From assembly GCA_048886185.1 (NCBI GenBank), contig JBHLKY010000010.1, positions 48,526 through 80,525 on the forward strand: DNA of 32,000 nucleotides, read 5' to 3'. The notes under the pieces were generated by a model. It was not told the origin of the DNA. It saw only the letters and a list, made by a program, of their open reading frames with translations, and searched no databases. Shown here one piece after another: positions 6,242 to 30,763 of the stretch (the first letter of the stretch is position 1; every line of letters begins with the position of its first letter). This DNA comes from Candidatus Hermodarchaeota archaeon. GTDB taxonomy: Archaea > Asgardarchaeota > Heimdallarchaeia > Hodarchaeales > Hodarchaeaceae. The translations under genes and the position numbers were made by a program.

Positions 6242-6943
6242 TTAAGAGCTTTGTATTTTATTGATTACTGATAATTTACCATTTTGAAGCAAAAAAATTT
6301 TATCAGCGTTTTTAGCCGCTTCAGGATCATGTGTGGTCATGATAATTGCATGATTTCCTCTTTGATCAACAATATGTCTAAAAAGGGAAATAATTTCTTT
6401 TCCAGTTTGTGAATCTAAATTCCCAGTTGGTTCATCGACCAACAGGATTAAAGGATTGTTTACAATAGCTCGTGATATAGCAATACGTTGTTTCTCCCCT
6501 CCTGATAGCTGATTTGGATAATGGTTTGCTTTTTCAGTCATGTCAGTTTGTTGGAGGGCTTTGAGTGCAAGTAACTTTCGTTCACTTTCAGGAACCTCAG
6601 CAAATATTAAGGGGATTTCAACGTTTTCTTCTGCTGTGAGATGAGGAAGTAAGTTAAAATCTTGAAAAACCATGCCTAGTTTGTTTCGTCGTAATTCAGA
6701 AGCAATATCATCCGATATCTTACCAATATTATAATTCTCTACGAAGACATCACCTTCAGTTGCTTGTTCCAATCCAGTGATTATATTTAATAGAGTAGTT
6801 TTACCTGATCCAGAAGCTCCCATAATAGCAACAAATTCATTAGGAAATAGCTTGAGATTTACATTATCAAAAACTTTTAAGGTAATTGAATCCTCATCAA
6901 ACTCTTTTTTTAACCCTTTAACGACCAAGATAGGCTCTATCAA
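6242..6943 (-). CDS. ABC transporter ATPase, LolD/MacB/FtsE family
   Basis: GASGSGKTT, GMVFQDFNLLPHLTAEENV, LSGGEKQRIAISRA, VDEPTGNLD, TTHD. TTG start; an in-frame stop lies 7 codons upstream with no ATG between. Confidence 0.92.
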   Translation of the reverse strand: MIEPILVVKGLKKEFDEDSITLKVFDNVNLKLFPNEFVAIMGASGSGKTTLLNIITGLEQATEGDVFVENYNIGKISDDIASELRRNKLGMVFQDFNLLPHLTAEENVEIPLIFAEVPESERKLLALKALQQTDMTEKANHYPNQLSGGEKQRIAISRAIVNNPLILLVDEPTGNLDSQTGKEIISLFRHIVDQRGNHAIIMTTHDPEAAKNADKIFLLQNGKLSVINKIQSS

Positions 6944-7101
6944 GCTAATTTCCCTGGTGGATCATTTATTCAATGGTATTATGATATTTATGGTTTATGT
7001 AAGAATCAATTTACTTTTAATCTTAGAGTTCTTATATATCATAGCAATAAATGAAAAGATAAAGAAAATTTAATTTATAAATCAAGATTTTTTTATCTTC
7101 A

Positions 7102-8166
7102 ATGAGATGTTCTAACGTGACCAAAAACCATACTAAAGACAATTATGATAATTCTGACCTTCCAGAAGATTTACTTATCGGAATAGCGAATGTATACAAG
7201 ATTTATCGAAGTGCAGAAATTGAAACAGTTGCGCTGCGAGGAGTAAGTTTATCATTATTTGAAGGAGAAATTATGGGTGTTATTGGTCCATCAGGAAGCG
7301 GTAAAAGTACCTTGGTTAACATAATGGCTGGATTGATAAAACCAACCGCAGGAATTGTATATTGGTCATCTGTTAGGGCTGACATTGCACGGATGCCCGA
7401 TAATTTTATAACTCAAATAAGAAATCAATTCATTGGGATTATTTGCCAGATATCGGAGTCTAATTTATTACCACACTTATCTGTTATCGAAAATGTTTTG
7501 TTACAAGGTCAAATTGGTAATTTAAATCGAACCGAGTTGAAAAAACATGCTTTGGAACTCTTGGATCGTGTTGGCCTCAGATCTCGTCAAAATAGTAAAC
7601 CAATGGTATTATCAATGGGCGAAAGACAGCGAATAGCTTTAGCTGCAGCATTAATTAATAAGCCGAAGATAATTCTAGCTGATGAGCCAACTGGTTCTCT
7701 TGATTATAAGAATGGAGAAGAATTCTTAGAATTAATACATGAAATAAATGAGAATTTAGGAACAGCATTTCTAATCGTGACTCACTCTCAGCAAGTTGTT
7801 CCTCATACTCATCGTATCATAGAACTTCGTGATGGAATCAAAGCAGGACAGCATGAAGAGATTGAATTAGACAATCTTGATTATAGTCGCATTATTATTC
7901 CTGATGACCAGGGACGAATACTACTTCCCCAAGAGTTGATAACACGATTTGATACAGACACAAGTCACTTTAAAGCTGTTCTTAAAGATGGTAAGATAGT
8001 ACTTGAGCCAATAGTAACTTCTCTTTCGAGGAAAAGTATTATCTTTCAACGGCGTTCGCATAAGGAAATAGCTTGTCCTGTTTGTAAAACTGTTAACATT
8101 GGTAAAAGCATTCTATGCTCTAATTGTGGAAGCTTATTACGAAAAGCTGGTCGTTGGTCAACATAA
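7102..8166 (+). CDS. ABC transporter ATPase (LolD/MacB family) fused to an AbrB-like domain and a zinc ribbon
   Basis: GPSGSGKST, NLLPHLSVIENV, LSMGERQR, ADEPTGSLD, VTHS. These are followed by DDQGRILLPQELI...DGKIVLEP (AbrB/SpoVT-like) and CPVC-x10-CSNC. Confidence 0.88.
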   Translation: MRCSNVTKNHTKDNYDNSDLPEDLLIGIANVYKIYRSAEIETVALRGVSLSLFEGEIMGVIGPSGSGKSTLVNIMAGLIKPTAGIVYWSSVRADIARMPDNFITQIRNQFIGIICQISESNLLPHLSVIENVLLQGQIGNLNRTELKKHALELLDRVGLRSRQNSKPMVLSMGERQRIALAAALINKPKIILADEPTGSLDYKNGEEFLELIHEINENLGTAFLIVTHSQQVVPHTHRIIELRDGIKAGQHEEIELDNLDYSRIIIPDDQGRILLPQELITRFDTDTSHFKAVLKDGKIVLEPIVTSLSRKSIIFQRRSHKEIACPVCKTVNIGKSILCSNCGSLLRKAGRWST

Positions 8167-8179
8167 GAAGAACCTCTTG

Positions 8180-11101
8180 TCATAAATTACGAAGGAGGTT
8201 TGAGACGTTTACATTTCGAGCATTTTTAGCAGCCATTCCTGAAGCTAATACTAGGATGCAAAATTCAAGAATTAGGATCACTCCGACTAAAAAAGGGGAA
8301 GCAAAAAACTCAAGTCTGAAGACATTTTCAGTTGAAAGAATAAAACTCCTTGAAGCAAGCATAAAACCAATTGTAAAACCTGAACCAATAATGAACCCGA
8401 GTGAAATCCCCAAAAAAATGATTATTAGCGCTTCTGCGAATGAAATCCAGAGTATTTGTCTTTTAGTCCCCCCACAAGCTCTTAAAATCGCGTATTCTTT
8501 CAGTCTCTTAGTGATGATATAATTATAGAATAAACTAATCCCAATAACAGCGATAAATAGAGACATCAAAAAGTTAACTGAGAGAATACCAGCAACACCT
8601 GTGATTTTCATAAAATTAAAGAACAATTCGTTACTTTGTTGTTGATCTATTACTTGTATTACTTGTGGTTGTGCTTTTAAACTGTCTGTAACGGAATTAA
8701 GTGTCTTAAGACTACGATTGTCAACTTTAATTAAAAAAATCCTAGTAGTGGTTATCCTAAAAATCTTCATAAGGTCTTGATTGATTAAAACTATTCCCCC
8801 AAACTTGGAAAAGCCACGAATTGTATATGCTTCAGAATGTAATTTCCCTATACCTGGAGCTGAATTCATAATTCCTACAACAGTAAAGTTCCAAACTGTG
8901 CTAATAGATCCAAAAAGGCCACTTACATTCAGTGAGTCGCCAATTTTTAACTTCAATCTTGAAGCTATAAAATCATTGATAATCATTCCACTAGTATTGT
9001 CTGTTTCTAACTTGTTTAACATGTCTTTCACTGTACCGCCAGCAACAGTTGATTCTTTAGAGAACTGACAAGCTGATAGGTAATTACTAGGACTAACTGC
9101 TGCAAGAGTAACTGAATAACTGCCGACACTGACTTGAGGGTTTGATGTCTGACTTATTGCGGATACTGCTAGTACACTTTCGATTTTTTCAAGTTCGAGA
9201 GAATAATCTAACGAAGTTTCTTCTGTAAAAACCTTAAAATCTGACCCAACTAGATATTTTAGATTTTTTTGGGTATTATAATCGATTGTTTGAGCGTAAT
9301 AAGTTGAGAATATCCCCAATGAGACGGTTAAAATCACTAATGTAATGATATTTAATACATGAGGTCTTTTTCTCACAAGATTCATTGTAATAACTTTACT
9401 TTTTGATTTAAATAAAAGACTAGTAATTTTTGATATTCGGGGAAGAATTTCCCCACTGAGAATCGTAAGACGTTTACATAATAAAAACCAGAGAATAGTG
9501 GCACCAGCTAAGTAAAATCCCATTAATTGAGGATCAAGAGTAAGTCGATTAATAATATCTGACTGTAATATAAGCAAAAAAATGAAAACAATGAGTACAA
9601 GAATAATTATATCAAAATTTCTTCTGGAGAACTGTTTTGTTAATCCAGAATTCTCTTTTTTGGGTTCTTGTTCTTGAAGCTCTTGTATAGCTCTTCTTGT
9701 TTTTTGAACAGCAATAAGAATGTAAATGAATCCAATAAACATTGCACTGAAAACCCATGTGGGCCATGATACCAACGAAGTGTTTACAAATTCTATTGGG
9801 AAATTCTGAGGATTAATGACAAGAAAATTCTCTGTTGACGAAATAACCAGTGTAATGATAAGTCCCAATCCAATACCAATTGAAACTCCAATAATCGAAA
9901 GAATAACGAATTCTACAATGAACAAAGTCATGATGATTCTAAAAGGAGCGCCTTTTAACCTCAATAATTCAATCTCGTTTTTTCTTTTTTCTAAAAAGTG
10001 AGAAGCTGTTGTCGCAAAGAAAATAGAGGCTACAATTATTAATGGTACAAAGATAAAGAAAACCAACACCTGAGAATCCTCATAATTTGTTAAAATTTGA
10101 TCTATTTCATCAAGATAAACTTCAGCAACAATTATCGTATTAGTAGTAGAGATACGGAATGCTAATGCTTCAATCTCTTGTGTTACTGAAAAAATAGACA
10201 TACTAGCAATTGCTTCACGCTTAATCTGAACATAAAGGCTTGGGCTTATGACTTGGACTTCCATAGCCTTTATAGAGCTCCTATTGAAAAGATCACGAGC
10301 AATGAATATTCCATCACCAAGGCTTTCGGGGAAAAAATATGGATATAAAAGATTTTTTTGGACTTTGCGGTCAAAAATGGCATTAATTGTAAAATTATAG
10401 AATTTAATTGGGTTAAAATACTCTAATGAAAATTCCCCACTTTCAGGATCCATTATTCTAGTGGCTATTGCGAAATCGATCTGATCACCTGTTGTAAAAG
10501 TCTGATTTGTTGCAAGTTCGATCTGATGCAGCATCCTTTTTGAAATAACAACCCCATTATTGGCTAGAGTAAGATTATCTTTCGTAGATGAAAGGATCAA
10601 TTGTTGTGATAGATGAAAAAGGTATTCTTCTTCAACTAGGTATGCTGATTGCCCAAGAATTTCAGAGACATAAAAATCGGATTGATTTTCAGGAGCTTCA
10701 TACACAGTAAAATTATCATCCCGATCGTTCAAGTTGAACAACATCAAAGTCGGTTGTACAAGAAAGGAGACCCCAACAAGAGGTTCCGATTCCTCTAAAT
10801 ATACCTGAACATCTTCAAGTCTATCATTAGGATAAAGTCCATAAACAAGATTATGAACCCTGATTTCAAAAGATCGCTCCTTCATTGCCGAATTAATAGC
10901 TAATCTTGGATATGTCTCAATCCACATGATTAAAGCTGTCGTTAAAGAAACACAGATAATAATTGCAATGATGATTGTTGAAGATCTTTTTAGATTGTGT
11001 AAAATGGTTTTGAATACATATCTAGGAATGAATCCATTGAAAAATTGTGTTTGAGGGTTTAATTTCTTTTGTTTCTGCTTCTTACTGCTGAAGTGGTTCA
11101 T
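8180..11101 (-). CDS. FtsX/MacB-family ABC permease with two tandem halves
   Basis: Two FtsX-like modules (RKNEIELLRLKGAP and RLKEYAILRACGGT), each preceded by a large extracytoplasmic domain with many N-x-S/T sequons. ATG 11101 is preferred over GTG 11122. Confidence 0.9.
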   Translation of the reverse strand: MNHFSSKKQKQKKLNPQTQFFNGFIPRYVFKTILHNLKRSSTIIIAIIICVSLTTALIMWIETYPRLAINSAMKERSFEIRVHNLVYGLYPNDRLEDVQVYLEESEPLVGVSFLVQPTLMLFNLNDRDDNFTVYEAPENQSDFYVSEILGQSAYLVEEEYLFHLSQQLILSSTKDNLTLANNGVVISKRMLHQIELATNQTFTTGDQIDFAIATRIMDPESGEFSLEYFNPIKFYNFTINAIFDRKVQKNLLYPYFFPESLGDGIFIARDLFNRSSIKAMEVQVISPSLYVQIKREAIASMSIFSVTQEIEALAFRISTTNTIIVAEVYLDEIDQILTNYEDSQVLVFFIFVPLIIVASIFFATTASHFLEKRKNEIELLRLKGAPFRIIMTLFIVEFVILSIIGVSIGIGLGLIITLVISSTENFLVINPQNFPIEFVNTSLVSWPTWVFSAMFIGFIYILIAVQKTRRAIQELQEQEPKKENSGLTKQFSRRNFDIIILVLIVFIFLLILQSDIINRLTLDPQLMGFYLAGATILWFLLCKRLTILSGEILPRISKITSLLFKSKSKVITMNLVRKRPHVLNIITLVILTVSLGIFSTYYAQTIDYNTQKNLKYLVGSDFKVFTEETSLDYSLELEKIESVLAVSAISQTSNPQVSVGSYSVTLAAVSPSNYLSACQFSKESTVAGGTVKDMLNKLETDNTSGMIINDFIASRLKLKIGDSLNVSGLFGSISTVWNFTVVGIMNSAPGIGKLHSEAYTIRGFSKFGGIVLINQDLMKIFRITTTRIFLIKVDNRSLKTLNSVTDSLKAQPQVIQVIDQQQSNELFFNFMKITGVAGILSVNFLMSLFIAVIGISLFYNYIITKRLKEYAILRACGGTKRQILWISFAEALIIIFLGISLGFIIGSGFTIGFMLASRSFILSTENVFRLEFFASPFLVGVILILEFCILVLASGMAAKNARNVNVSNLLRNL

Positions 11102-22084: not shown

Positions 22085-22495
22085 ACCTTTTATCACCTAG
22101 TTTAATGGAAAAGTCTTTTCTCTGAACTGTTTATTTAATATGTCAAATGATATTCTAATCAGACTACTTACATTTAGTCTTAAGAATTTATTGCTCTCTG
22201 CATTGGTAAATAATATGGATTTAAAATAAATGAAATTAGGATAATAATATTTAACTTTAGAGAAAATAATGAGTTCTTTCAATGGGGACATCAATTGAGA
22301 TTATGTCATCATTCAAGGATTGCAGCTCCGATAAGTGGTCACTGGAACTCTTTAATACCTTTTTAATAAGGGATAAGAGAGATAAATTGAGAAATGTAAT
22401 GGTTTTAACGTTTAAAGAGGTTTGAATTTAATATAAATTAAAGGAAAATCTTTGAAAAAAGTTAAAACGGAAGATGTAAATTAGAAATTCGCTTT

Positions 22496-22501
22496 GGAGG
22501 T
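22496..22501 (+). promoter_or_regulatory. Shine-Dalgarno site of the first gene of the metabolic operon
   Basis: GGAGGT 7 nt upstream of ATG 22509. Confidence 0.65.
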
Positions 22502-22508
22502 CTTCTTT

Positions 22509-23795
22509 ATGAATAATTTGCTAGCTAAATTGCGAATACCAGATCAGAATTTAAAAGAAATCAATGATTTCTTATTAAATGAGGATAATCCTCTAATTAA
22601 CAATCTTTTTGAAGTTATAGAAAAATATGGTGGAATTGATGAAATTAATCGAAAAGCTGACGAAGCTAGGAATCTAGATAATCTTCTAGGAAGGCTAGAA
22701 AGGAAAAGACCAGAATATGTTAAGGATCTCAAATGGCTATCTTTTCAACGAGATGAGCAAGCATTCATAAGTGATCAGCAATATCGTCATAAAGTTTTGG
22801 GGGATGATGTTGGTAATTTTGAGTTTGATGAATCTTTTGCTGTCACCTTGGAGCTTTCAGCATGCCAGTATTTTCCTTTCCTTATCGATGGAGCTAAACG
22901 TGCTATTACAAAACAGGAGTTACTCCCAGGACGGATCATCCGAGTCAGAAGAATGAAAGAACAGGAAGAAGATGGGGATTTATTGGCGATGGCAGCAGCC
23001 ATGCAAATCATTGGTGCAACTTATGTCGAAACCTTAGACACTAAGGGTACAGCTCCAGGGCCCGATGGAAATCCGATCAATATTCATTTAGGTGGTCCAG
23101 AGACAATCACAGGTTATTTTGGTGGTGTTGGTCAACCTAATGATTTTGCTCTCAAATGGGTCGATGAATATTTATATTATTATACAAATTATGGGGTTCA
23201 GCAAGTTCTCAATATTAATCTAGGAACTATTCTTTTAGGTTATTTTCTCCATAAGTTAGGAATTAACAACGAATTCAAGATTTCAGTATTTGTTGGGAAC
23301 GACAATCCATTCTCTTGTTTGTGGACTCTTCTTGCTGCAAAATTATTCGCACGTGAAGATGGCAGTAGTCCGTTGATTGGATTTAATCTAGCAAACTCTG
23401 TAAATAATCACACAATTGAGCTGAGTGCTTACATTAGAAACGAGTTTGGTTTTGAAGATGTAGTACGGTTGGAGCATCATGTGATTGAAACTTGGAAAAG
23501 TATTGTACGACAGCCCTATGATCGTCGTGAGGAGTTAGTAAAATTAGCTAAACGAGTTAAAAACATTAGTGCGAAGCATGAAGGGGGTAATGTTGAAGTT
23601 GAAAGGACCCGAGATCATCCTTCGGATATTTTAGATTATTTTCGTCCTAAGGAAGATATTATAAGCGCTAATGATTGGAAAGCCTTACGTACGAACTATT
23701 TCGATCGACAGGATGCGATTAATACAACTGCCCGGATTCTTACCCAGAATGGTATTCCATTTATTGCAGCACGTAATCTTCATCATCGTGAGTGA
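22509..23795 (+). CDS. Uncharacterised enzyme-like soluble protein (about 428 aa)
   Basis: Long ORF with a strong SD. Gly-rich, enzyme-like blocks (VETLDTKGT, IHLGGPETITGYFGGVGQPN, RLEHHVIETWKSIVRQPY, SAKHEGG). No family I can name. Confidence 0.85.
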   Translation: MNNLLAKLRIPDQNLKEINDFLLNEDNPLINNLFEVIEKYGGIDEINRKADEARNLDNLLGRLERKRPEYVKDLKWLSFQRDEQAFISDQQYRHKVLGDDVGNFEFDESFAVTLELSACQYFPFLIDGAKRAITKQELLPGRIIRVRRMKEQEEDGDLLAMAAAMQIIGATYVETLDTKGTAPGPDGNPINIHLGGPETITGYFGGVGQPNDFALKWVDEYLYYYTNYGVQQVLNINLGTILLGYFLHKLGINNEFKISVFVGNDNPFSCLWTLLAAKLFAREDGSSPLIGFNLANSVNNHTIELSAYIRNEFGFEDVVRLEHHVIETWKSIVRQPYDRREELVKLAKRVKNISAKHEGGNVEVERTRDHPSDILDYFRPKEDIISANDWKALRTNYFDRQDAINTTARILTQNGIPFIAARNLHHRE

Positions 23796-24961
23796 AGAAT
23801 ATGCTCGATTTTGAGGGCTTACGGACAGGAGCGGGGATTTTTGATGTTTTATCGCGAGCTCAGAGACTTGAACGAGAAGGAAAAAGGGTTTTGCACTTTG
23901 AAATAGGTCAACCTGATTTTTATACTCCTGAATGCGTGAAAAAGGCAGCAAAGAAGGCGTTAGATGCTAACTTCACTGGTTATGTTTCTGCTCAGGGGAT
24001 TCTTGAATTGAAAGAGGCCATTCAAGATGAGATAGAAATAACTCGTGGATTCCGCCCAAATCTGGATCAGATACTCATCGTACCTGGAGGAAACTCAGCA
24101 ATTTACTATATGCTTCGTGCTACGGCTGACAATCCTCTCGCTGAAGAAGTTATTCATCCTAACCCTGGCTTTCCGACATATAGAGCTGTTGTACATTATT
24201 TGAATACTGGAAATGTTTCACTTCCTCTCAAAGAAGAATATGAGTTTCGATTGAATCCATCTGACGTAGCAGCAAATATTTCATCCAAAACAAGAGTTAT
24301 TATTATAAACAGTCCACAAAATCCGACTGGTTCTGTCATGAAAAAGGAGGAAATAATCGAAATTGCTGAATTGGCTGAACAGAAGGATATTTACATTTTA
24401 TCTGACGAAGTTTACTCTAAAATGACCTATGATGAGAAGTTTTACTCTTGTTCTGAGCTTGATGAGTGTAAAGAAAGAACAGTTGTTTTAGATGGTTTTT
24501 CCAAAGCTTATTCAATGACGGGATGGAGATTGGGTTATGTAATTGGACCAGAGAGAATTATTGATCGGATGAGTCTCTTAATCTCGATGACTGTCTCTTG
24601 TGTTAATAGTTTTATCCAAAAAGCTGGTGTGGCAGCTCTAAGAATGAAAGAACCACAAGAAGAGCTGAAGCAAAATATGAAGGCATTTCGTAAAAGAAGA
24701 GATACTATTGTTACAGGTTTGAATGAGATCCCAGGGTTTTCCTGTCTGAAACCTCAAGGCGCTTTCTATGTTTTTCCTAATATCAAGGGTACAGGAAAGA
24801 CCTCTAAAGAATTAGCTGATAATTTATTAGAACAAATCGGTGTTGCGTGTCTTCCTGGAACGGTTTTTGGAGATGCTGGAGAGGGATATCTTAGATTCTC
24901 ATATGCAACATCCGTGGATATTATAAATGAAGCAATAACAAAAATAAAGAAGTCATTTTAA
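23792..24961 (+). CDS. PLP-dependent aminotransferase, class I/II (aspartate aminotransferase-like)
   Basis: HFEIGQPDF, INSPQNPTGSV, LSDEVY, DGFSKAYSMTGWRLGY (PLP lysine), QGAFYVFPN, GEGYLRFSYA. GTG start overlaps the upstream stop (GTGA); ATG 23801 is an alternative. Confidence 0.93.
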   Translation: MKNMLDFEGLRTGAGIFDVLSRAQRLEREGKRVLHFEIGQPDFYTPECVKKAAKKALDANFTGYVSAQGILELKEAIQDEIEITRGFRPNLDQILIVPGGNSAIYYMLRATADNPLAEEVIHPNPGFPTYRAVVHYLNTGNVSLPLKEEYEFRLNPSDVAANISSKTRVIIINSPQNPTGSVMKKEEIIEIAELAEQKDIYILSDEVYSKMTYDEKFYSCSELDECKERTVVLDGFSKAYSMTGWRLGYVIGPERIIDRMSLLISMTVSCVNSFIQKAGVAALRMKEPQEELKQNMKAFRKRRDTIVTGLNEIPGFSCLKPQGAFYVFPNIKGTGKTSKELADNLLEQIGVACLPGTVFGDAGEGYLRFSYATSVDIINEAITKIKKSF

Positions 24962-24965
24962 AAAA

Positions 24966-26015
24966 ATGGTGATAAATTTGATTATTAGAATCGCGTTTAT
25001 TGGATTTGGTGTCGTAGGTCAAGGTCTAGCAGAAATACTTCTAGAACAGAAAGAAGATTTGGAAAATCAATACAATTTTGAATTTGATGTCGTAGCAGTG
25101 TCTGATAAGATGAAAGGATCAGTTTACGATGAGAATGGGCTAGATCTTCAAAAGCTAATGGATTTAGTAAAAAACACAGGTAAGATTGATGGTTATCCTG
25201 CAGGGATTAAGGGATGGGACAGTATAAAAACAATTACAGAAACAAATGCTAATTTTATTATTGAAGTATCTTGGACCGATATTAATACTGGAGAACCTGC
25301 AATTTCACATGTGAAAGCTGCTATTGCATGTCATAAACACGTTGTCATGACAAATAAGGGTCCAATTGCCTTAGCTGCAAGAGAATTAATGTCAATGGCT
25401 AAAACAAATGGAGTTGAGTTAAGATTTGAGGGAACAGTCTTGAGCGGGACTCCAGCTCTTAATTTAGGATTATATAATCTTGCTAGCTCAAAGATTACAA
25501 AGCTCCGAGGAATTGTTAATGGAACTACGAATTATATAATAACGGAAATGGAAAAAGGATTAAGCTATGAAGCAGCTTTAAAACAGGCTCAGAAATTGGG
25601 TTATGCTGAAGCGGATCCAACAGCTGATGTAGAGGGTTACGATGCTTTAGGAAAAATTGTAATTCTAACCAATGTTGTGATGGGTGGAAGTATTTCTAAA
25701 GATCAAGTTCCTTGTGAGGGAATTACCAAAATCACCGCACAGGACATAACAGATGCGAAAAATGAGGGGAAACGTTGGAAACTTATTGCAGGAACGGAAT
25801 TAAAAAATGATGGATCAATTGAGGCATATGTTCGGCCAGAAAAAATACCTTTGGAACACCCACTTGCTGCTGTCAATGGGCCTATAAATGCTCTTACTTA
25901 TACCACGAAATATTTAGGTGATGTGACAATTGTTGGACCAGGGGCAGGTCGTGAGGCTACAGGATATGCATTATTAACTGATCTGTTGGATATCCATCGT
26001 AAAATCTCTAGATAA
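24966..26015 (+). CDS. hom: Homoserine dehydrogenase (no ACT domain)
   Basis: Rossmann GFGVVGQG, VVMTNKGP, FEGTVLSGTP, GIVNGTTNYI, GYAEADPTADVEGYDALGK, GPGAGREATG. Confidence 0.93.
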   Translation: MVINLIIRIAFIGFGVVGQGLAEILLEQKEDLENQYNFEFDVVAVSDKMKGSVYDENGLDLQKLMDLVKNTGKIDGYPAGIKGWDSIKTITETNANFIIEVSWTDINTGEPAISHVKAAIACHKHVVMTNKGPIALAARELMSMAKTNGVELRFEGTVLSGTPALNLGLYNLASSKITKLRGIVNGTTNYIITEMEKGLSYEAALKQAQKLGYAEADPTADVEGYDALGKIVILTNVVMGGSISKDQVPCEGITKITAQDITDAKNEGKRWKLIAGTELKNDGSIEAYVRPEKIPLEHPLAAVNGPINALTYTTKYLGDVTIVGPGAGREATGYALLTDLLDIHRKISR

Positions 26016-26041
26016 CCTATCTGATTATGTTGGGATGATAA

Positions 26042-27832
26042 TTGGGATACATGGGTAAATATTTGGATGTAAATCTCTCCACAGGAAAGATAATTGAGCC
26101 TAAGCTTAATATGCGTCTTGCAGAGAAGTTCATTGGGGGCAAGGGCCTTGGTGCAAAATTCCTTTTCGATACATTAAAGAGAGGAGTTGATCCATTATGC
26201 CCTGACAATATTTTACTTTACATGACGGGTCCTTTATCTGGTACATCTGTTCAAACTTCTGGTCGATGGTGCATTGTCACAAAATCTCCTCTTACAGGTA
26301 TTTACCTTGATAGTCAGATTGGGGGCAAATTTGGTCATCGCTTAAAACGTGCTGGCTATGATTTTATCATTTTTAGGGGAAAAGCCGAGTCTCCTAGCTA
26401 TTTAGAAATTTCCTCCGATAGAGTTGATATTCACCCAGCGGGGGATCTCTGGGGTAAAGGGACGTATCAAGTGGAAGAAGTTTTAAAGAAAAAGTATGAT
26501 ACTTCAGAAGTATGCACTATCGGGCCTGCAGGTGAAAATTTAGTAACTTTTGCTAATATTATGACTGATCGAACTCATATGGCTGGTAGAGGAGGTGCTG
26601 GAGCGGTCATGGGATCGAAGAATTTGAAAGCAGTCGTTGCTGGAGGAACCCATAAAATCGAAGCTGCGGATCCAGATAAGTTTCAAGTATTATCTAGAGC
26701 CTTTACAAAGAGAGTACGAGAAAATCCTGGTGTTAAACATCGACATGAGATTGGAACAGTCATGTGGGTCAAGATGGCAAATGATGGTGGATTTCTACCA
26801 ACAAGAAACTTTCAATCTGGAGTATTTGAGGGTGCTGATAAGATCTCTGGAGAAAGAATGCGTGATGAATACGTTGTAGGTCATACTGCATGTTATCGGT
26901 GCTTAATAGCATGTGGAAAGACGACTCGCTTCACTGAAGGTAAATATGCTGGTTTAGAGGTTGATGGCCCTGAATATGAAACAAGTGCCCTCATGGGAGC
27001 CAGTTGTGGAATCGATGACTTAGGTGCTATAGCGAAAGCCAATGAGATTTGTGACAACCTTGGAATTGATACCATCTCTGCTGGTGGAACAGTAGCTTTT
27101 GCAATGGAATGTAACAATAAGGGAATTCTAAACCAACAGGATATTGATAATTTAGATTTTGGTAATCCTGATGCACTACATAAGATGCTAAATTTAATTG
27201 CACATCGGGAAGGAATTGGAAAACTGTTTTCTAAGGGTTCAAGGGCTGCTGCCCAAAAATTAGGTCATAATAGCACTGATTTTGCAATTCAGGTTAAAAA
27301 TATGGAACTTGCAGGGGTTGAACCTCGTGGATCTTTTGGTATGGCATTAGCATATTCCACTTCGGATCGTGGAGGTTGTCACCAACGCTGTTGGACACCA
27401 GGAGCGGAACTTTCTGGTTCATTACCGCGATTTAGCTTTAATGGGGTGCCGAAGTTTGTAAAAGAGTCTCAAGATGAAAGAGCTGCATGCTTCTCTTTAG
27501 TTCTTTGTGACTTTCTTCCATTTAATGTTCCAGAAATGATCGAGATGCTTAATGCGGCCACGGGTTTTTCCTACACGCCTGAAACTTATTTAGAAACTGG
27601 TGAACGGATATGGAATCTTACTCGTTTAATTAATACATCCGAAGGAATGACCATCTTCAATGATGTTTTACCTGCCCGATTTTATCAAGAAAAAGTTCCT
27701 GATGGAGATGCTAGGGGTCAGAAGATTGATTTAACAACATTTGAGGAAGCCAAAACAGAGTATTATCAGTTAAGGGGGTGGGATCGTGAAGGGTTCCCAA
27801 CAAAAGAGAAATTAAAGGCCTTAGGATTGTGA
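26042..27832 (+). CDS. aor: Aldehyde:ferredoxin oxidoreductase family protein (W/Mo-pterin, 4Fe-4S)
   Basis: GYMGK.L.VNLS start, GGKGLG, AGRGGAGAVMGSKNLKAV, C-x2-C-x3-C (CYRCLIAC), GPEYET, CDNLGIDTIS, RGGCH, LCDF, YYQLRGWD.EG.P. The start is TTG 26042 or ATG 26051. Confidence 0.93.
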   Translation: MGYMGKYLDVNLSTGKIIEPKLNMRLAEKFIGGKGLGAKFLFDTLKRGVDPLCPDNILLYMTGPLSGTSVQTSGRWCIVTKSPLTGIYLDSQIGGKFGHRLKRAGYDFIIFRGKAESPSYLEISSDRVDIHPAGDLWGKGTYQVEEVLKKKYDTSEVCTIGPAGENLVTFANIMTDRTHMAGRGGAGAVMGSKNLKAVVAGGTHKIEAADPDKFQVLSRAFTKRVRENPGVKHRHEIGTVMWVKMANDGGFLPTRNFQSGVFEGADKISGERMRDEYVVGHTACYRCLIACGKTTRFTEGKYAGLEVDGPEYETSALMGASCGIDDLGAIAKANEICDNLGIDTISAGGTVAFAMECNNKGILNQQDIDNLDFGNPDALHKMLNLIAHREGIGKLFSKGSRAAAQKLGHNSTDFAIQVKNMELAGVEPRGSFGMALAYSTSDRGGCHQRCWTPGAELSGSLPRFSFNGVPKFVKESQDERAACFSLVLCDFLPFNVPEMIEMLNAATGFSYTPETYLETGERIWNLTRLINTSEGMTIFNDVLPARFYQEKVPDGDARGQKIDLTTFEEAKTEYYQLRGWDREGFPTKEKLKALGL

Positions 27833-27965
27833 TTTTTTCTACATAGAAGTTTAAAATTCCCCCCTTAATTAGAGAAAAATGATCTGAAAAACAACATCTG
27901 AGTTTTAGATTCAAGTGAATAACAAATTGTGTTATCTACTAGCAATTTAATCTTGGTGTGAAAAC

Positions 27966-29159
27966 ATGGCCAAGTTTGATATTAGTATTTTCGATGAAGT
28001 CATTGATCGTTCAAATACAGGATCTATTAAATGGGATCCCTTTTATTTAAAGATGATATTTGGGAAAGAGGATCTCCTCCCACTATGGGTAGCAGACATG
28101 GATTTTCGTGCTCCTCAACCTGTCATTGATGCACTTGTGGAGAGAGCAAAACACGGAATTTTTGGGTACACTGGGCCTGATCCCTCAAGATATTATAAGT
28201 CTGTAATAAATTGGTTTAAACGTCGACATAATTGGTTCTTAGATAAGGATTGGTTTATTTTCTCTCCAGGTATTGTTCAAGCGTGTACTTACTTAATTCA
28301 AAGGTTTTCCCAACCTGGGGATAAGATAATTATTCAAAATCCAGTCTATTATCCTTTTGCTGATATTATAAAGAACAATGGGAGGAGAATTGTCTCAAAC
28401 CAACTAGATTTAATTGATGGTCACTATCAAATGAACTTTGAAGACCTTGAAGCAAAAGCCAAAGACCCAAGATTAAAAGCTCTGATCCTTTGTAGTCCCC
28501 ATAACCCAGTTGGTAGGGTATGGTTAAAGGATGAATTAAATAGGTTAGGAGACATCTGTCTAGAAAATAACATCTTGGTTTTTTCAGACGAAATCCATTG
28601 CGATTTAATATTCCCAAATAATAAACACACAGTATTTGCGTCGATTTCTGAAGAGTTTGCTCAGTATTCTATCACCTGTACTGCAGGTAGTAAGACATTC
28701 AATTTAGCAGGTTTTCAACATTCTAATGTCATAATTCCAAATAAAAACTTAAGAAAAATTTTCAAAATTCAAATGGAAAACAATGCTCTCACTACTCCAA
28801 ATGTTTTTGGAGCTCTGGCCCTACAAGTAGCATATGACGAAGGAGAGGAATGGTTGGAGTCACTTATTCAAGTTCTTAAGCGTAATCTTGACTTTCTAAA
28901 ATCTTTCATCAAGGAAAATCTCCCTCAAATTTCTGTAATCGAACCTGAAGGAACCTACTTGGTTTGGTTAGATTTTCGAGAATTAGGTTTAGAGCATAAA
29001 GAATTAGAAAAAAAGATGTTAGAAGAGGCAAAATTGGCTTTGGATTCAGGATATAAATTTGGAGTAGGTGGTGAAGGTTTTGAAAGGATAAACATTGCCT
29101 GTCCAATTTCCATTCTGAGAGAATCTCTTGAACGAATCGCTCGTGTATTTTCCAATTAA
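27966..29159 (+). CDS. malY: MalY/PatB-family PLP-dependent C-S lyase (cystathionine beta-lyase-like)
   Basis: IDRSNTGSIKWD, LPLWVADMDF, HGIFGY, LCSPHNPVGRVW, SDEIHCD, SKTFNLAG, EGTYLVWLDF, GFERINIACP. Confidence 0.9.
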   Translation: MAKFDISIFDEVIDRSNTGSIKWDPFYLKMIFGKEDLLPLWVADMDFRAPQPVIDALVERAKHGIFGYTGPDPSRYYKSVINWFKRRHNWFLDKDWFIFSPGIVQACTYLIQRFSQPGDKIIIQNPVYYPFADIIKNNGRRIVSNQLDLIDGHYQMNFEDLEAKAKDPRLKALILCSPHNPVGRVWLKDELNRLGDICLENNILVFSDEIHCDLIFPNNKHTVFASISEEFAQYSITCTAGSKTFNLAGFQHSNVIIPNKNLRKIFKIQMENNALTTPNVFGALALQVAYDEGEEWLESLIQVLKRNLDFLKSFIKENLPQISVIEPEGTYLVWLDFRELGLEHKELEKKMLEEAKLALDSGYKFGVGGEGFERINIACPISILRESLERIARVFSN

Positions 29160-29171
29160 TGTCTCAGGGGT

Positions 29172-30587
29172 TTAGGTTTTTATTTTCCAGATGGAACTTT
29201 CTGGTTTATCCTCAATTTGAATTCCCATCTCCAATAGTTTAGCCCTTATCTGATCGGAAAGCTCATATTGTTTGACATCTCGTAATTTATCTCTTAAATC
29301 CACTATTAGATCCACTAAAGCAGAAATAGAAACCAAACCTTTTTGTTCCTCCTCCTTAAGCGAAATTCCGAGAATTCCAACAAGAGTTACTATCTTGTTC
29401 CTTGCATCTTCTAATATATGCTTCTCATTATCTAAGGATGCGTTCACCTTTTTAATAAATTGCATTATAGCCTGGAGAGCCCCAACAGTATTTAGATCGT
29501 CGTCCATTGCTAATATAAAGTCTTTCTCAACTTGGACTACTGACTCGCGTAGATCTGTTTTACTTCCTCCTGACGCTTGATCAATTGCCGCAATTGTGGT
29601 TCTGATCCGATCAAGAAGGACTTTTGTTTGAGTAAGTGCCTCACGATTGAAATCGACTCCCTTACGATAATGAGAATTGACCAAGAATAAACGTATTAAC
29701 ATCGGATCATACTCTCGAAGGAGATCGCGTACAAGGATGAAGTTACCTTTAGATTTCCCCATCCTTTCACCATCCACTGTCAGAAATGCAGCGTGCAACC
29801 AGTAGTTCACAAACTTCTTCCCTGTACGAGATTCAGACTGTGCTATCTCGTTTGGATGATGTAAATAAAGATGGTCTATTCCACCCCCATGAATGTCTAA
29901 AGTATCACCGAGGTACTTCTGAGACATAACACTACATTCAAGATGCCATCCTGGATACCCCAATCCCCAAGGAGAGGGCCATTTCATTAAATGCTCTGGT
30001 GGGGCGCGAATCCACAACGCAAAATCTTGTGGATTACGTTTTTCAGGATTTACAGCTATTCTAGCTCCTGCGGATTCATCGGAATAAGTCGAAGGACTAA
30101 GTTCTCCATATGTTGGAAATTTTGTAACATCATAATAGATTGAACCATTTACCTCGTACGCATATCCCTTTTCCAACAAATCTTTTACAAATTCAATCAT
30201 TTCAGGAATTTCTCCTGTAGCACGAGGGTAGATGTCAGATCGTTGAATATTGAGGGCATCCATATCTTCGAAAAATCTCCGAATTTGACTCTCCACTAAA
30301 ACCATAGGTTGAATTTCTTTTGCCTTAGCTGTTCGAATTATTTTATCTTCTCCACTGTCAGCGTCATCAGTTAAATGACCAACATCTGTGAAATTCTGAA
30401 CCCAAAAAACATTATAATTCCTCCAGCGGAGATACCGAACTAGGATATCCCAGTAGGAATAAGTTCTTGCGTTTCCAATATGAGCATCCTCATAAACTGT
30501 CTGACCACACGAGTAAAAATGGACTTTTTTATCCTCAATAGGGATAAATACTTCTTTCTCTTGCGTTAAAGAGTTATATAGCTTCAT
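29172..30587 (-). CDS. cysS: Cysteine--tRNA ligase (class I)
   Basis: MKLYNSLT, YSCGQTVY, HIGN, QNFTDVGH, DFALW, PGWHLECS, HHPNEIAQSE, RMGKSKGN (KMSKS variant), AMDDDLNT, IRAKLLEMGIQIED. ATG 30587 is preferred over TTG 30602. Confidence 0.96.
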   Translation of the reverse strand: MKLYNSLTQEKEVFIPIEDKKVHFYSCGQTVYEDAHIGNARTYSYWDILVRYLRWRNYNVFWVQNFTDVGHLTDDADSGEDKIIRTAKAKEIQPMVLVESQIRRFFEDMDALNIQRSDIYPRATGEIPEMIEFVKDLLEKGYAYEVNGSIYYDVTKFPTYGELSPSTYSDESAGARIAVNPEKRNPQDFALWIRAPPEHLMKWPSPWGLGYPGWHLECSVMSQKYLGDTLDIHGGGIDHLYLHHPNEIAQSESRTGKKFVNYWLHAAFLTVDGERMGKSKGNFILVRDLLREYDPMLIRLFLVNSHYRKGVDFNREALTQTKVLLDRIRTTIAAIDQASGGSKTDLRESVVQVEKDFILAMDDDLNTVGALQAIMQFIKKVNASLDNEKHILEDARNKIVTLVGILGISLKEEEQKGLVSISALVDLIVDLRDKLRDVKQYELSDQIRAKLLEMGIQIEDKPESSIWKIKT

Positions 30588-30763
30588 CCGGATTAATTCC
30601 AAGTATATATGTTAAATTCAGTTTCTAGCTCTAAAATGTTTTAATATTTATTTAATGTTTGAAAATTTAGAATAATCTAATAAGGATTTCAACTAAAATA
30701 TCCAAATATACTTACCCATAAATAGTTAATAATATTGGCACTAAGAGAAGTATTGTTTATCTT

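Follow-up and report, generated by a model that had tools for sequence, protein, structure and literature searches.

In an Asgard genome, the genes for a barrel protein (here UNK), a class I aminotransferase (AT), homoserine dehydrogenase (Hom) and an aldehyde:ferredoxin oxidoreductase (AOR) form a conserved operon. We tentatively propose, with a little less than even confidence, that this operon runs from aspartate through aspartate semialdehyde (ASA) and homoserine to 4-hydroxy-2-oxobutanoate (HOB), and that its AOR stands in for aspartate kinase and Asd. If true, aspartate, homoserine and HOB would be linked by a route not described before. The preliminary description of this DNA knew of no pathway with this gene set, and our literature search likewise found no paper describing a UNK-AT-Hom-AOR operon. 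That description had offered a catabolic model, a ferredoxin-driven bypass of aspartate kinase and Asd, and a model in which HOB is cleaved to formaldehyde; its central claim stood, in that the gene set proved to be conserved, with an orphan Hom and no ordinary ask-asd-thrB route, and its models were partly supported.

Organization of the operon

The operon consists of four + strand open reading frames read from the sequence of the window, the whole 32,000-nucleotide stretch of DNA that was analysed. It is preceded by a divergent, AT-rich intergenic region of 412 nt (22097–22508; initially put at about 420 nt), presumed to be its promoter region, which is bordered by an OppB/DppB-like permease gene on the - strand (ending at 22096) and by the UNK start codon. 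The UNK gene (22509–23795, 428 amino acids) starts at ATG 22509, with GGAGG 8 nt ahead of it; the mechanical reading frame begins at TTG 22494. Its TGA stop overlaps by 4 nt with the GTG start of the aminotransferase gene (23792–24961), which could also start at the in-frame ATG 23801. Next come hom (24966–26015), 4 nt further on, and, after another gap of 26 nt, the gene for the tungsten-type AOR (26042–27832), which starts with TTG and has a further in-frame ATG at 26051. A TTTTTT tract on the same strand (27833–27838) lies directly 3' of the AOR stop codon and is a possible archaeal terminator. The overlap, both gaps and the closing T tract are as first described, and profile searches agree with the gene families originally assigned.

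The aminotransferase is of the aspartate/aromatic type, matching PF00155 at 217 bits and carrying the PLP-lysine motif SKAYSMTGWR at residue 237. Its best NCBIfam model, archaeal AspAT, gives 324.9 bits, under the equivalog cut-off of 550, and the protein scores below every equivalog cut-off; the nearest PDB entries are 1dju and 1gd9 from P. horikoshii (276.8 bits). Hom exceeds the cut-off of the NF004912 equivalog (424.5 bits against 373), matches PF00742 (Homoserine_dh) at 199 bits, has the Rossmann motif GFGVVG and is closest in the PDB to the Hom structure 3do5. AOR matches both AFOR_N (254 bits) and AFOR_C (443 bits), with a CxxCxxxC cluster motif at residue 284.

A gene for a PatB/MalY-type C-S lyase (27966–29159, + strand; TIGR04350, 475 bits against a cut-off of 340) follows AOR after a 133-nt spacer. 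It is possibly tied to the operon via the branch from homoserine to methionine, but its position after AOR is confined to the Hodarchaeota genus (loci L057–L059 and L129), so that it counts as a candidate member only.

Missing aspartate-family genes and consumers of ASA

The genome is a MAG of 75 contigs, 96% complete with 4.96% contamination, and holds a single copy of hom (one PF00742 match). Across this 96%-complete genome there was no Semialdhyde_dhC match that would indicate Asd, nothing above 23 bits for aspartate kinase and no ThrB above cut-off, so that the lack of ask, asd and thrB, first remarked for the window, extends to the whole genome and leaves it with no recognisable ordinary ask-asd-hom-thr route. 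Two threonine-synthase-like genes are present and are a possible sink for homoserine; tblastn of the genome detected neither DHDPS/DapA nor Fae. The families carrying UNK-AT-Hom-AOR are mostly without Asd. Hom occurs in 17 of 21 genomes of family f1 and 23 of 31 of family f4, and Asd in two of the 21 and one of the 31.

The genome does encode enzymes that would consume ASA. ADH synthase is present (TIGR01949 equivalog, 304.1 bits against 299.45; NF005556, 327 against 241), two genes downstream of DHQ synthase II (PF01959, 280 bits) and with AroD in between, while the same contig carries chorismate synthase and a GHMP-type kinase, probably a shikimate kinase of the archaeal type. In the reaction of the MJ0400-type enzyme, ASA is condensed with DKFP (PMC4162585). 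Judging from these genes, the genome appears to require ASA for aromatic amino acids via ADH synthase and DHQ synthase II. No match to DHQ synthase II was found in three sampled genomes of lineages that have no Hom or Asd.

Conservation of the gene set and a dedicated AOR clade

The synteny that the preliminary description suggested testing was found: two Asgard families (Hodarchaeota and Heimdall-type) together have about 20 loci with UNK-AT-Hom-AOR, and one Bathyarchaeon (locus L170) has the order Hom-AOR-UNK. AT is the next gene after UNK in locus L098 and in every Hodarchaeota and Heimdall locus, and wherever a locus contains both Hom and AOR, these two are neighbours. Because the arrangement recurs in so many loci of two families, and is reordered in a Bathyarchaeon, it is not due to chance.

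The genome encodes 13 AOR paralogs. The operon's AOR shares 66–81% identity with the cluster AORs of relatives and 53% with those linked to UNK in Bathyarchaeia, whereas its identity to the 12 other paralogs does not exceed 39%. All UNK-linked AORs fall into one clade (SH-aLRT 97), apart from the other paralogs. The enzyme matches the P. furiosus AOR (1aor), at 461 bits, better than the formaldehyde oxidoreductase FOR (1b25), at 349 bits, and so scores closest to the broad-specificity AOR proper.

These observations bear on a looser reading, in which the aminotransferase and AOR would serve ordinary peptide fermentation, where an amino acid becomes a 2-oxo acid, then an aldehyde and finally an acid, with Hom and UNK as neighbours for unrelated reasons such as homoserine salvage. 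Aminotransferase-AOR pairs are common in anaerobes, and in family f4 the UNK-AT and Hom-AOR pairs, each intact, can be separated by 1–6 kb with genes on both strands. However, the four gene families are kept together across two Asgard families and three of them reappear, differently ordered, in a Bathyarchaeon; moreover, the AOR comes from a dedicated clade rather than being a generic paralog, and the single Hom of the genome lacks an Asd partner. We consider such a loose association improbable.

UNK and its other gene partners

UNK has no match in Pfam, NCBIfam or PDB sequences. A helical domain (residues 1–105) and a TIM barrel (residues 108–426) are predicted, and the AF2 model has a pLDDT of 89.8 and a pTM of 0.90. 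Foldseek matched this model best, though weakly, to class II FBP aldolases (E 5e-5, TM 0.33–0.47), while VIA returned generic TIM barrels only (Z about 12); the model of the shorter neighbour-family d3 also has class II aldolases as its first matches. UNK may then be a metal-type barrel enzyme, remotely class-II-aldolase-like. Judged by identity it is very conserved, with at least 8000 homologues (all scored candidates match) and 71–100% identity among the 120 matches listed; among 400 Asgard genomes 227 have it, and Bathyarchaeia carry it at 64–67% identity.

This wide spread, together with its other partners, is the main clue. Of the first 45 loci, 21 have directly after UNK, at a distance of -4 to 28 nt, a gene fusing a DHDPS-type pyruvate aldolase to Fae (DHDPS::Fae). 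The same order occurs in about 37 further loci, the fusion adjoins UNK divergently in at least 19 Bathyarchaeia loci, and in another Bathyarchaeon (locus L185) UNK, AOR and the fusion are found together. The fusion has no DapA arginine and carries the motif YNIPACTG. It was not found in any of the 21 genomes of f1 or the 31 of f4, where AT-Hom-AOR stands in its place. Lineages f7 and f31 have UNK with the fusion and have no Hom or Asd, and UNK is therefore independent of ASA. In bacteria, three separate UNK homologues lie near a PanB-like hydroxymethyltransferase gene. A role for the fusion as a PanB substitute is ruled out, as PanB is present almost everywhere in Asgard. Both the fusion and the PanB-like partners suggest that UNK may work around HOB, the keto acid that corresponds to homoserine.

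HOB also figures in the formaldehyde model, where the aminotransferase would convert homoserine to HOB, UNK would cleave HOB to pyruvate and formaldehyde, and AOR would oxidise the formaldehyde. In reverse, AOR would reduce formate and UNK would join formaldehyde to pyruvate, leading to homoserine and ASA in one line through all four genes. The partners of UNK and the aldolase-like first matches of both UNK and d3 fit this model, and another formaldehyde sink would be needed in f1 and f4 because Fae is absent there. However, most lineages pair UNK with DHDPS::Fae, which already supplies a pyruvate-formaldehyde aldolase, so a second HOB aldolase would be redundant. The operon's AOR is nearer to AOR proper than to FOR, its invariant adjacency to Hom suggests ASA as a common substrate, and such a breakdown of aspartate would be pointless given available oxaloacetate decarboxylation. 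We regard this model as very unlikely.

Proposed pathway

We propose a short homoserine-centred pathway in Asgard lineages from which aspartate kinase and Asd were lost or always absent. AOR would interconvert aspartate and ASA with ferredoxin, and Hom would interconvert ASA, the intermediate common to both enzymes, and homoserine with NAD(P)(H). The aminotransferase would link homoserine to HOB, possibly with aspartate and oxaloacetate as partner pair, and UNK would convert HOB or homoserine into, or from, some further product. The favoured net direction is reductive, from aspartate via ASA to homoserine, with ASA drawn off for the ADH synthase and DHQ synthase II entry to aromatic amino acid synthesis. 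As AOR would take the position of Asd, the route would use neither ATP nor acyl phosphate. Of the earlier models the bypass gains most, from the ASA consumers, the Hom-AOR adjacency and the dedicated AOR clade. Against it, ferredoxin reduction of aspartate is uphill and to our knowledge has never been shown, and we know of no AOR that acts on ASA; the operon's own AOR is nearest to the broad-specificity enzyme.

Enzymes of the AOR family normally oxidise aldehydes, which favours the opposite, catabolic direction. A C4 compound would enter via UNK as HOB or homoserine, and homoserine would pass through ASA and aspartate to oxaloacetate, with Hom yielding NAD(P)H and AOR reduced ferredoxin. One aminotransferase could exchange the amino group between aspartate and HOB while releasing oxaloacetate, and aromatic amino acid synthesis would take its ASA from this flow as a side branch. 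The genome's many peptide transporters and 13 AORs are typical of fermenters; an MFS transporter gene follows AOR in f4, oxaloacetate-decarboxylase-like genes lie downstream in L170, and bacterial UNK homologues occur in operons that look catabolic, alongside transporters and GntR/IclR regulators. However, no source of homoserine or HOB was identified and free homoserine is uncommon as a substrate, while the fusion-bearing lineages, which would split HOB to pyruvate and a C1 unit, would likewise need a feedstock. The demand for ASA with no other supply fits biosynthesis at least as well, and we consider the catabolic direction unlikely.

Comparison with known systems

The proposed reductive pathway shares aspartate, ASA and homoserine with the canonical aspartate-family pathway (LysC/Ask, Asd, Hom, ThrB and ThrC), as well as an equivalog-level Hom and threonine-synthase-like genes. 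It differs in that searches for Ask, Asd and ThrB found none in the genome, nor in most relatives, in having AOR where Asd would act, and in the coupling of a barrel enzyme and an aminotransferase to Hom.

In acetogens and engineered Pyrococcus furiosus, ferredoxin-driven AOR reduces an acid to an aldehyde and an NAD(P)H-dependent step pulls this to the alcohol. The operon would follow the same logic with aspartate, ASA and homoserine, but on the side-chain carboxylate of an amino acid and for biosynthesis.

The archaeal DKFP route (ADH synthase of the MJ0400 type and DHQ synthase II of the MJ1249 type; PMC4162585) uses ASA, and with both enzymes encoded it would be a biosynthetic customer for the operon. 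In methanogens and haloarchaea the ASA for this route comes from Ask and Asd, whereas both are missing from the Asgard genome.

Archaeal Fae-Hps fusions and bacterial PanB transfer C1 units between pterins and carbon skeletons, and it is with a Fae fusion or with a PanB-like gene that UNK is usually paired. The aldolase of UNK's fusion partner is, however, a DHDPS-type pyruvate aldolase and not Hps, and neither partner occurs in the operon of the Asgard genome itself.

The synthetic homoserine cycle, or HOB route, is man-made from promiscuous E. coli enzymes and converts pyruvate and formaldehyde to HOB and then homoserine. As there, the operon would join HOB and homoserine by an aminotransferase, but its genes appear to be natural and dedicated.

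Gene content and layout of the operon

The preliminary description had proposed four coupled genes on one strand, and all four were found on the + strand of the window. The first encodes a 428-aa barrel protein (UNK; 22509-23795), whose ATG start is preceded by GGAGG. The aminotransferase gene (AT; 23792-24961) starts at a GTG within a 4-nt overlap with the TGA of UNK, with an alternative in-frame ATG at 23801, and is followed after a 4-nt gap by the gene for homoserine dehydrogenase (Hom; 24966-26015) and, after a further 26 nt, by that for an aldehyde:ferredoxin oxidoreductase (AOR; 26042-27832). These spacings agree with those first described, as does the divergent spacer of roughly 420 nt, which measures 412 nt and lies between the operon and an Opp/Dpp permease gene; the T tract, read from the sequence, is a TTTTTT that follows the AOR stop codon. 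A promoter and terminator scan, using a bacterial model on this archaeal host, returned signals no better than those of shuffled sequence. On the 3' side of the operon lie genes for a PatB-type C-S lyase (27966-29159) and a cysteinyl-tRNA synthetase (29172-30602), an order kept only inside the Hodarchaeota genus (loci L057-L059 and L129).

Hom can be assigned with a score of 424.5 bits to the NCBIfam equivalog NF004912, above the cut-off of 373, and of 199.4 bits to the Pfam catalytic domain PF00742. Its closest PDB entries are all homoserine dehydrogenases, and the N-terminal Rossmann GxGxxG nucleotide site reads GFGVVG at residue 13. The aminotransferase carries the fold-type I domain PF00155 (217 bits, Pfam) and the PLP lysine motif SKAYSMTGWR at residue 237. 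Its best NCBIfam match is the archaeal aspartate aminotransferase NF041091, at 324.9 bits below the equivalog cut-off of 550, and it falls below the cut-off of every other NCBIfam equivalog too.

The AOR contains both domains of its family, AFOR_N (PF02730, 254.5 bits) and AFOR_C (PF01314, 442.8 bits), together with the CxxCxxxC [4Fe-4S] motif CYRCLIAC at residue 284 and more cysteines at 483 and 489. It scores 461 bits to AOR (1aor), 349 to FOR (1b25), 279 to WOR5 and 50 to the GAPOR model. The source genome, a MAG of 4.84 Mb that is 96% complete with 4.96% contamination and carries the window on contig 10, encodes 13 AOR-family paralogs; open frames of 822 aa and 731 aa occur at two of these loci. 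The other 12 paralogs share at most 39% identity with the window AOR, the AORs of Asgard clusters share 66-81%, and two UNK-linked AORs from Bathyarchaeia share 53%. A quick maximum-likelihood tree of the sequences at hand gathers every one of the 20 UNK-linked AORs into a single clade (SH-aLRT 97).

Conservation of the gene set

To compare gene neighborhoods we took the 9 kb or so that flank UNK on each side, from 45 Asgard genomes, and added 80 loci from species-representative genomes. The order UNK-AT-Hom-AOR was found in the Hodarchaeota family f1 and the Heimdall-type family f4 (Heimdallarchaeota in the records), at about 20 loci when truncated contigs and duplicates are allowed for, so that the linkage on which the preliminary description depended extends well beyond this contig. 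At these loci UNK is adjacent to AT, and Hom to AOR, without exception. In part of f4 the two pairs stand 1-6 kb apart with intervening genes on both strands, and we therefore regard the operon as two sub-modules. Outside the Asgard archaea one Bathyarchaeon (L170) has Hom-AOR-UNK on one strand, and another (L185) has UNK, a convergent AOR and an aldolase::Fae fusion gene together. The genes that follow Hom-AOR-UNK at L170 (10590-12562) encode an OAD-gamma/biotinyl carrier protein and then an HMGL-like carboxyltransferase, of the oxaloacetate decarboxylase or pyruvate carboxylase type.

Aspartate semialdehyde supply and demand

Aspartate semialdehyde (ASA) and homoserine open the way to threonine, methionine and lysine and, in many archaea, also to the aromatic amino acids. 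To our knowledge the textbook holds only one way of making ASA, by aspartate kinase (Ask) and ASA dehydrogenase (Asd). The Semialdhyde_dhC domain (PF02774) has zero matches in the 96%-complete MAG, which argues that it encodes neither Asd nor ArgC. Aspartate kinase was not found either, the best TIGR00657 score being 22.9 bits where the cut-off is 208.7; nothing exceeded the cut-off for ThrB, and tblastn found neither DHDPS/DapA nor Fae. Hom is single-copy. The absence of the usual Hom partners, first remarked on for the window, thus holds across the MAG for ask, asd and thrB. Two genes have threonine synthases as their best match. Among 400 Asgard genomes Hom occurs in 17/21 of f1 and 23/31 of f4, and Asd in only two and one of these genomes, respectively.

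A consumer of ASA is encoded in the same MAG. The ADH synthase of the archaeal aromatic route exceeds the cut-offs of both the TIGR01949 equivalog (304.1 vs 299.45) and NF005556 (327.3 vs 241), and lies on contig 42 in a shikimate cluster (L210: 4998-7626 and 13282-15306). DHQ synthase II, which had no match in the three genomes sampled outside the window's lineage, and AroD are encoded by the two genes upstream of ADH synthase; the cluster also holds a UbiA prenyltransferase, chorismate synthase, a GHMP-type kinase that is probably the shikimate kinase, and two genes without a family. Enzymes of the ADH synthase type join ASA to a deoxy-keto-hexose phosphate (PMC4162585), so, as far as gene content can tell, this MAG appears to require ASA while the textbook suppliers Ask and Asd are absent.

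The UNK family

UNK has no match in Pfam, NCBIfam or, by phmmer, PDB sequences, and the Atlas feature search gave none that was usable. All 8000 of the 8000 scored candidates in a protein search were hits, and the 120 listed are 71-100% identical and all labelled hypothetical. The gene is present in 227 of the 400 Asgard genomes, and relatives are encoded at at least 589 loci of species-representative genomes, many of them Bathyarchaeia at 64-67% identity. Clustering at 50% reduces the family to a few full-length representatives, and its range takes in Asgard archaea, Bathyarchaeia, some bacteria and one viral contig. This last is a 41-kb ENA virus-sorted contig (L120) on which a 385-aa homologue about 50% identical to UNK (P0124; 8001-9158) sits by itself; its neighbors are small phage-like genes and genes for an RFC-like clamp loader, ERCC4, ThiF and a radical-SAM protein, and an archaeal virus may carry it as an auxiliary metabolic gene.

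The AlphaFold model of UNK (pLDDT 89.8) combines a helical N-domain with a TIM barrel. Its top 20 Foldseek hits are class II (FBP) aldolases, all weak (E 5e-5 to 1e-3, TM 0.33-0.47, rmsd about 9 Å); a VIA search placed many unrelated TIM barrels equal at Z of about 12, and no Pfam model, that of the class II aldolases (PF01116) included, matched UNK when the threshold was relaxed to E = 10. In the Atlas the closest clusters come from Chloroflexota and Actinomycetota and contain proteins of about 310 aa that are either unnamed or labelled U32. Class II aldolases have a three-histidine metal site and a catalytic Asp/Glu; in UNK, residues H193, H324, H357, E115, D265, E322 and E358 are invariant. 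UNK was also considered as a fold-type III PLP enzyme or as a 2-oxoacid decarboxylase, and both ideas were dropped, on chemical grounds and because no fold hit matched them.

Partners of UNK in other lineages

In many other lineages UNK is accompanied by a DHDPS-type pyruvate aldolase fused to Fae. The fusion gene directly follows UNK, with a gap of -4 to 28 nt, in 21/45 loci of the first set; the same arrangement is seen in about 37 loci of the second, and in Bathyarchaeia the fusion adjoins UNK divergently in at least 19 loci. Neither f1 (0/21) nor f4 (0/31) has the fusion. The fusion retains the Schiff-base lysine (GIKDSSG) and passes the TIGR00674 cut-off, as a true DapA would; we rejected that assignment because the motif YNIPACTG places a cysteine at what we take to be the site of the ASA-binding arginine of DapA, and because the fusion is widespread in lineages without Asd or Hom. 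Thorarchaeota-type genomes (f31; L111-L119, about 6600-9470 in each) carry two tandem fusion paralogues away from UNK, with 42-46% identity to the Loki-type fusion.

Where an Asgard family has no UNK, its place 15-25 nt upstream of the fusion is taken by d3, a protein of 315 aa without a Pfam match, as at L105 (9506-10453, - strand) and in seven relatives (alignment A3). The d3 model matches the same Atlas clusters as UNK (TM 0.77-0.87) and the same class II aldolases (E about 1e-8). Comparison of the UNK and d3 profiles with hhalign gave a probability of 2.5-14%, so that homology is suggested by shared structural neighbors alone, and d3 may be a short relative of the UNK barrel.

Three unrelated bacterial UNK homologues each have a gene for a PanB-like hydroxymethyltransferase nearby. 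One of them, P0277, is common in human gut metagenomes, where it was found on 616 contigs. At one of these (L125: 4323-15489) the operon runs PanB-like enzyme, Liv-type ABC transporter (5 genes), UNK homologue, IlvD/EDD dehydratase, MBL-fold hydrolase, Dak1, Dak2 and then IclR. Upstream of it come an FGGY kinase gene and two AP_endonuc_2 isomerase genes, and the set has the look of a catabolic pathway not yet described. A role in pantoate synthesis, with UNK as a ketopantoate reductase or the fusion as a stand-in for PanB, was considered and rejected: PanB is near-universal in Asgard archaea, with or without the fusion, and the MAG has a complete archaeal CoA-precursor operon, CoaBC-PanE-pantoate kinase-PPS-PanB, on contig 19 (L124: 3793-8449), its genes lying on one strand with overlaps or short gaps.

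Discussion

The fusion and the PanB-like enzyme would each convert a 2-oxo acid and a pterin-bound C1 unit to a 4-hydroxy-2-oxo acid, reversibly. With pyruvate as the 2-oxo acid the product would be 4-hydroxy-2-oxobutanoate (HOB), the keto acid of homoserine. In f1 and f4, without the fusion, UNK is coupled to AT and then to Hom, enzymes that would connect HOB with homoserine and ASA. Since these two independent contexts converge on the homoserine/HOB node, we place UNK there. Its chemistry on HOB or homoserine could be of the aldol type; because ThrB is missing, we also considered that UNK could activate homoserine for the threonine-synthase-like enzymes.

For Hom and AOR, ASA would be the sole plausible common metabolite. 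As the two enzymes would share ASA, Asd is missing and ASA appears to be needed, we propose the chain aspartate - ASA - homoserine - HOB - (UNK), all of whose substrate assignments we infer. AOR would replace Ask and Asd, and one aminotransferase may handle both the aspartate/oxaloacetate and the homoserine/HOB pairs. The chain could run oxidatively, from homoserine towards aspartate. We favor the reductive direction over this, because aspartate should be plentiful in a peptide user and because Hom would pull the unfavorable reduction of aspartate.

A bolder reading, which we hold to be possible though doubtful, has Hodarchaeota, Heimdall-type Asgard archaea and some Bathyarchaeia producing ASA and homoserine with no use of ATP: a dedicated tungsten AOR would reduce aspartate and Hom would trap the aldehyde. 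On this reading UNK would define a new family of enzymes whose substrate is homoserine or HOB, and other archaea would feed the same node from pyruvate and pterin-bound C1 via the fusion.

The intermediates of this scheme are textbook ones; the enzyme set is not, and the UNK family is uncharacterised. We know of no AOR that acts on ASA and of no pathway that joins Hom to AOR. Our search of the literature found no description of the fusion, of HOB in archaea, or of ASA in connection with AOR or with Asgard archaea. Lineages without Ask and Asd, which count the closest known relatives of eukaryotes among them, have nonetheless retained enzymes that use ASA, along with an orphan Hom tied to a specialised AOR. 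If that AOR makes ASA, it would open a new, ATP-saving entry into a central pathway and give tungsten enzymes a new role in physiology, and metabolic reconstructions that score Asgard archaea as auxotrophs would need correction. The operon would also offer a first chemical handle, homoserine or HOB, on the very conserved UNK family. Were the whole reading true, nature would have its own alternative ways into the aromatic and aspartate-family amino acids, and one of them would parallel the synthetic HOB/homoserine pathway.
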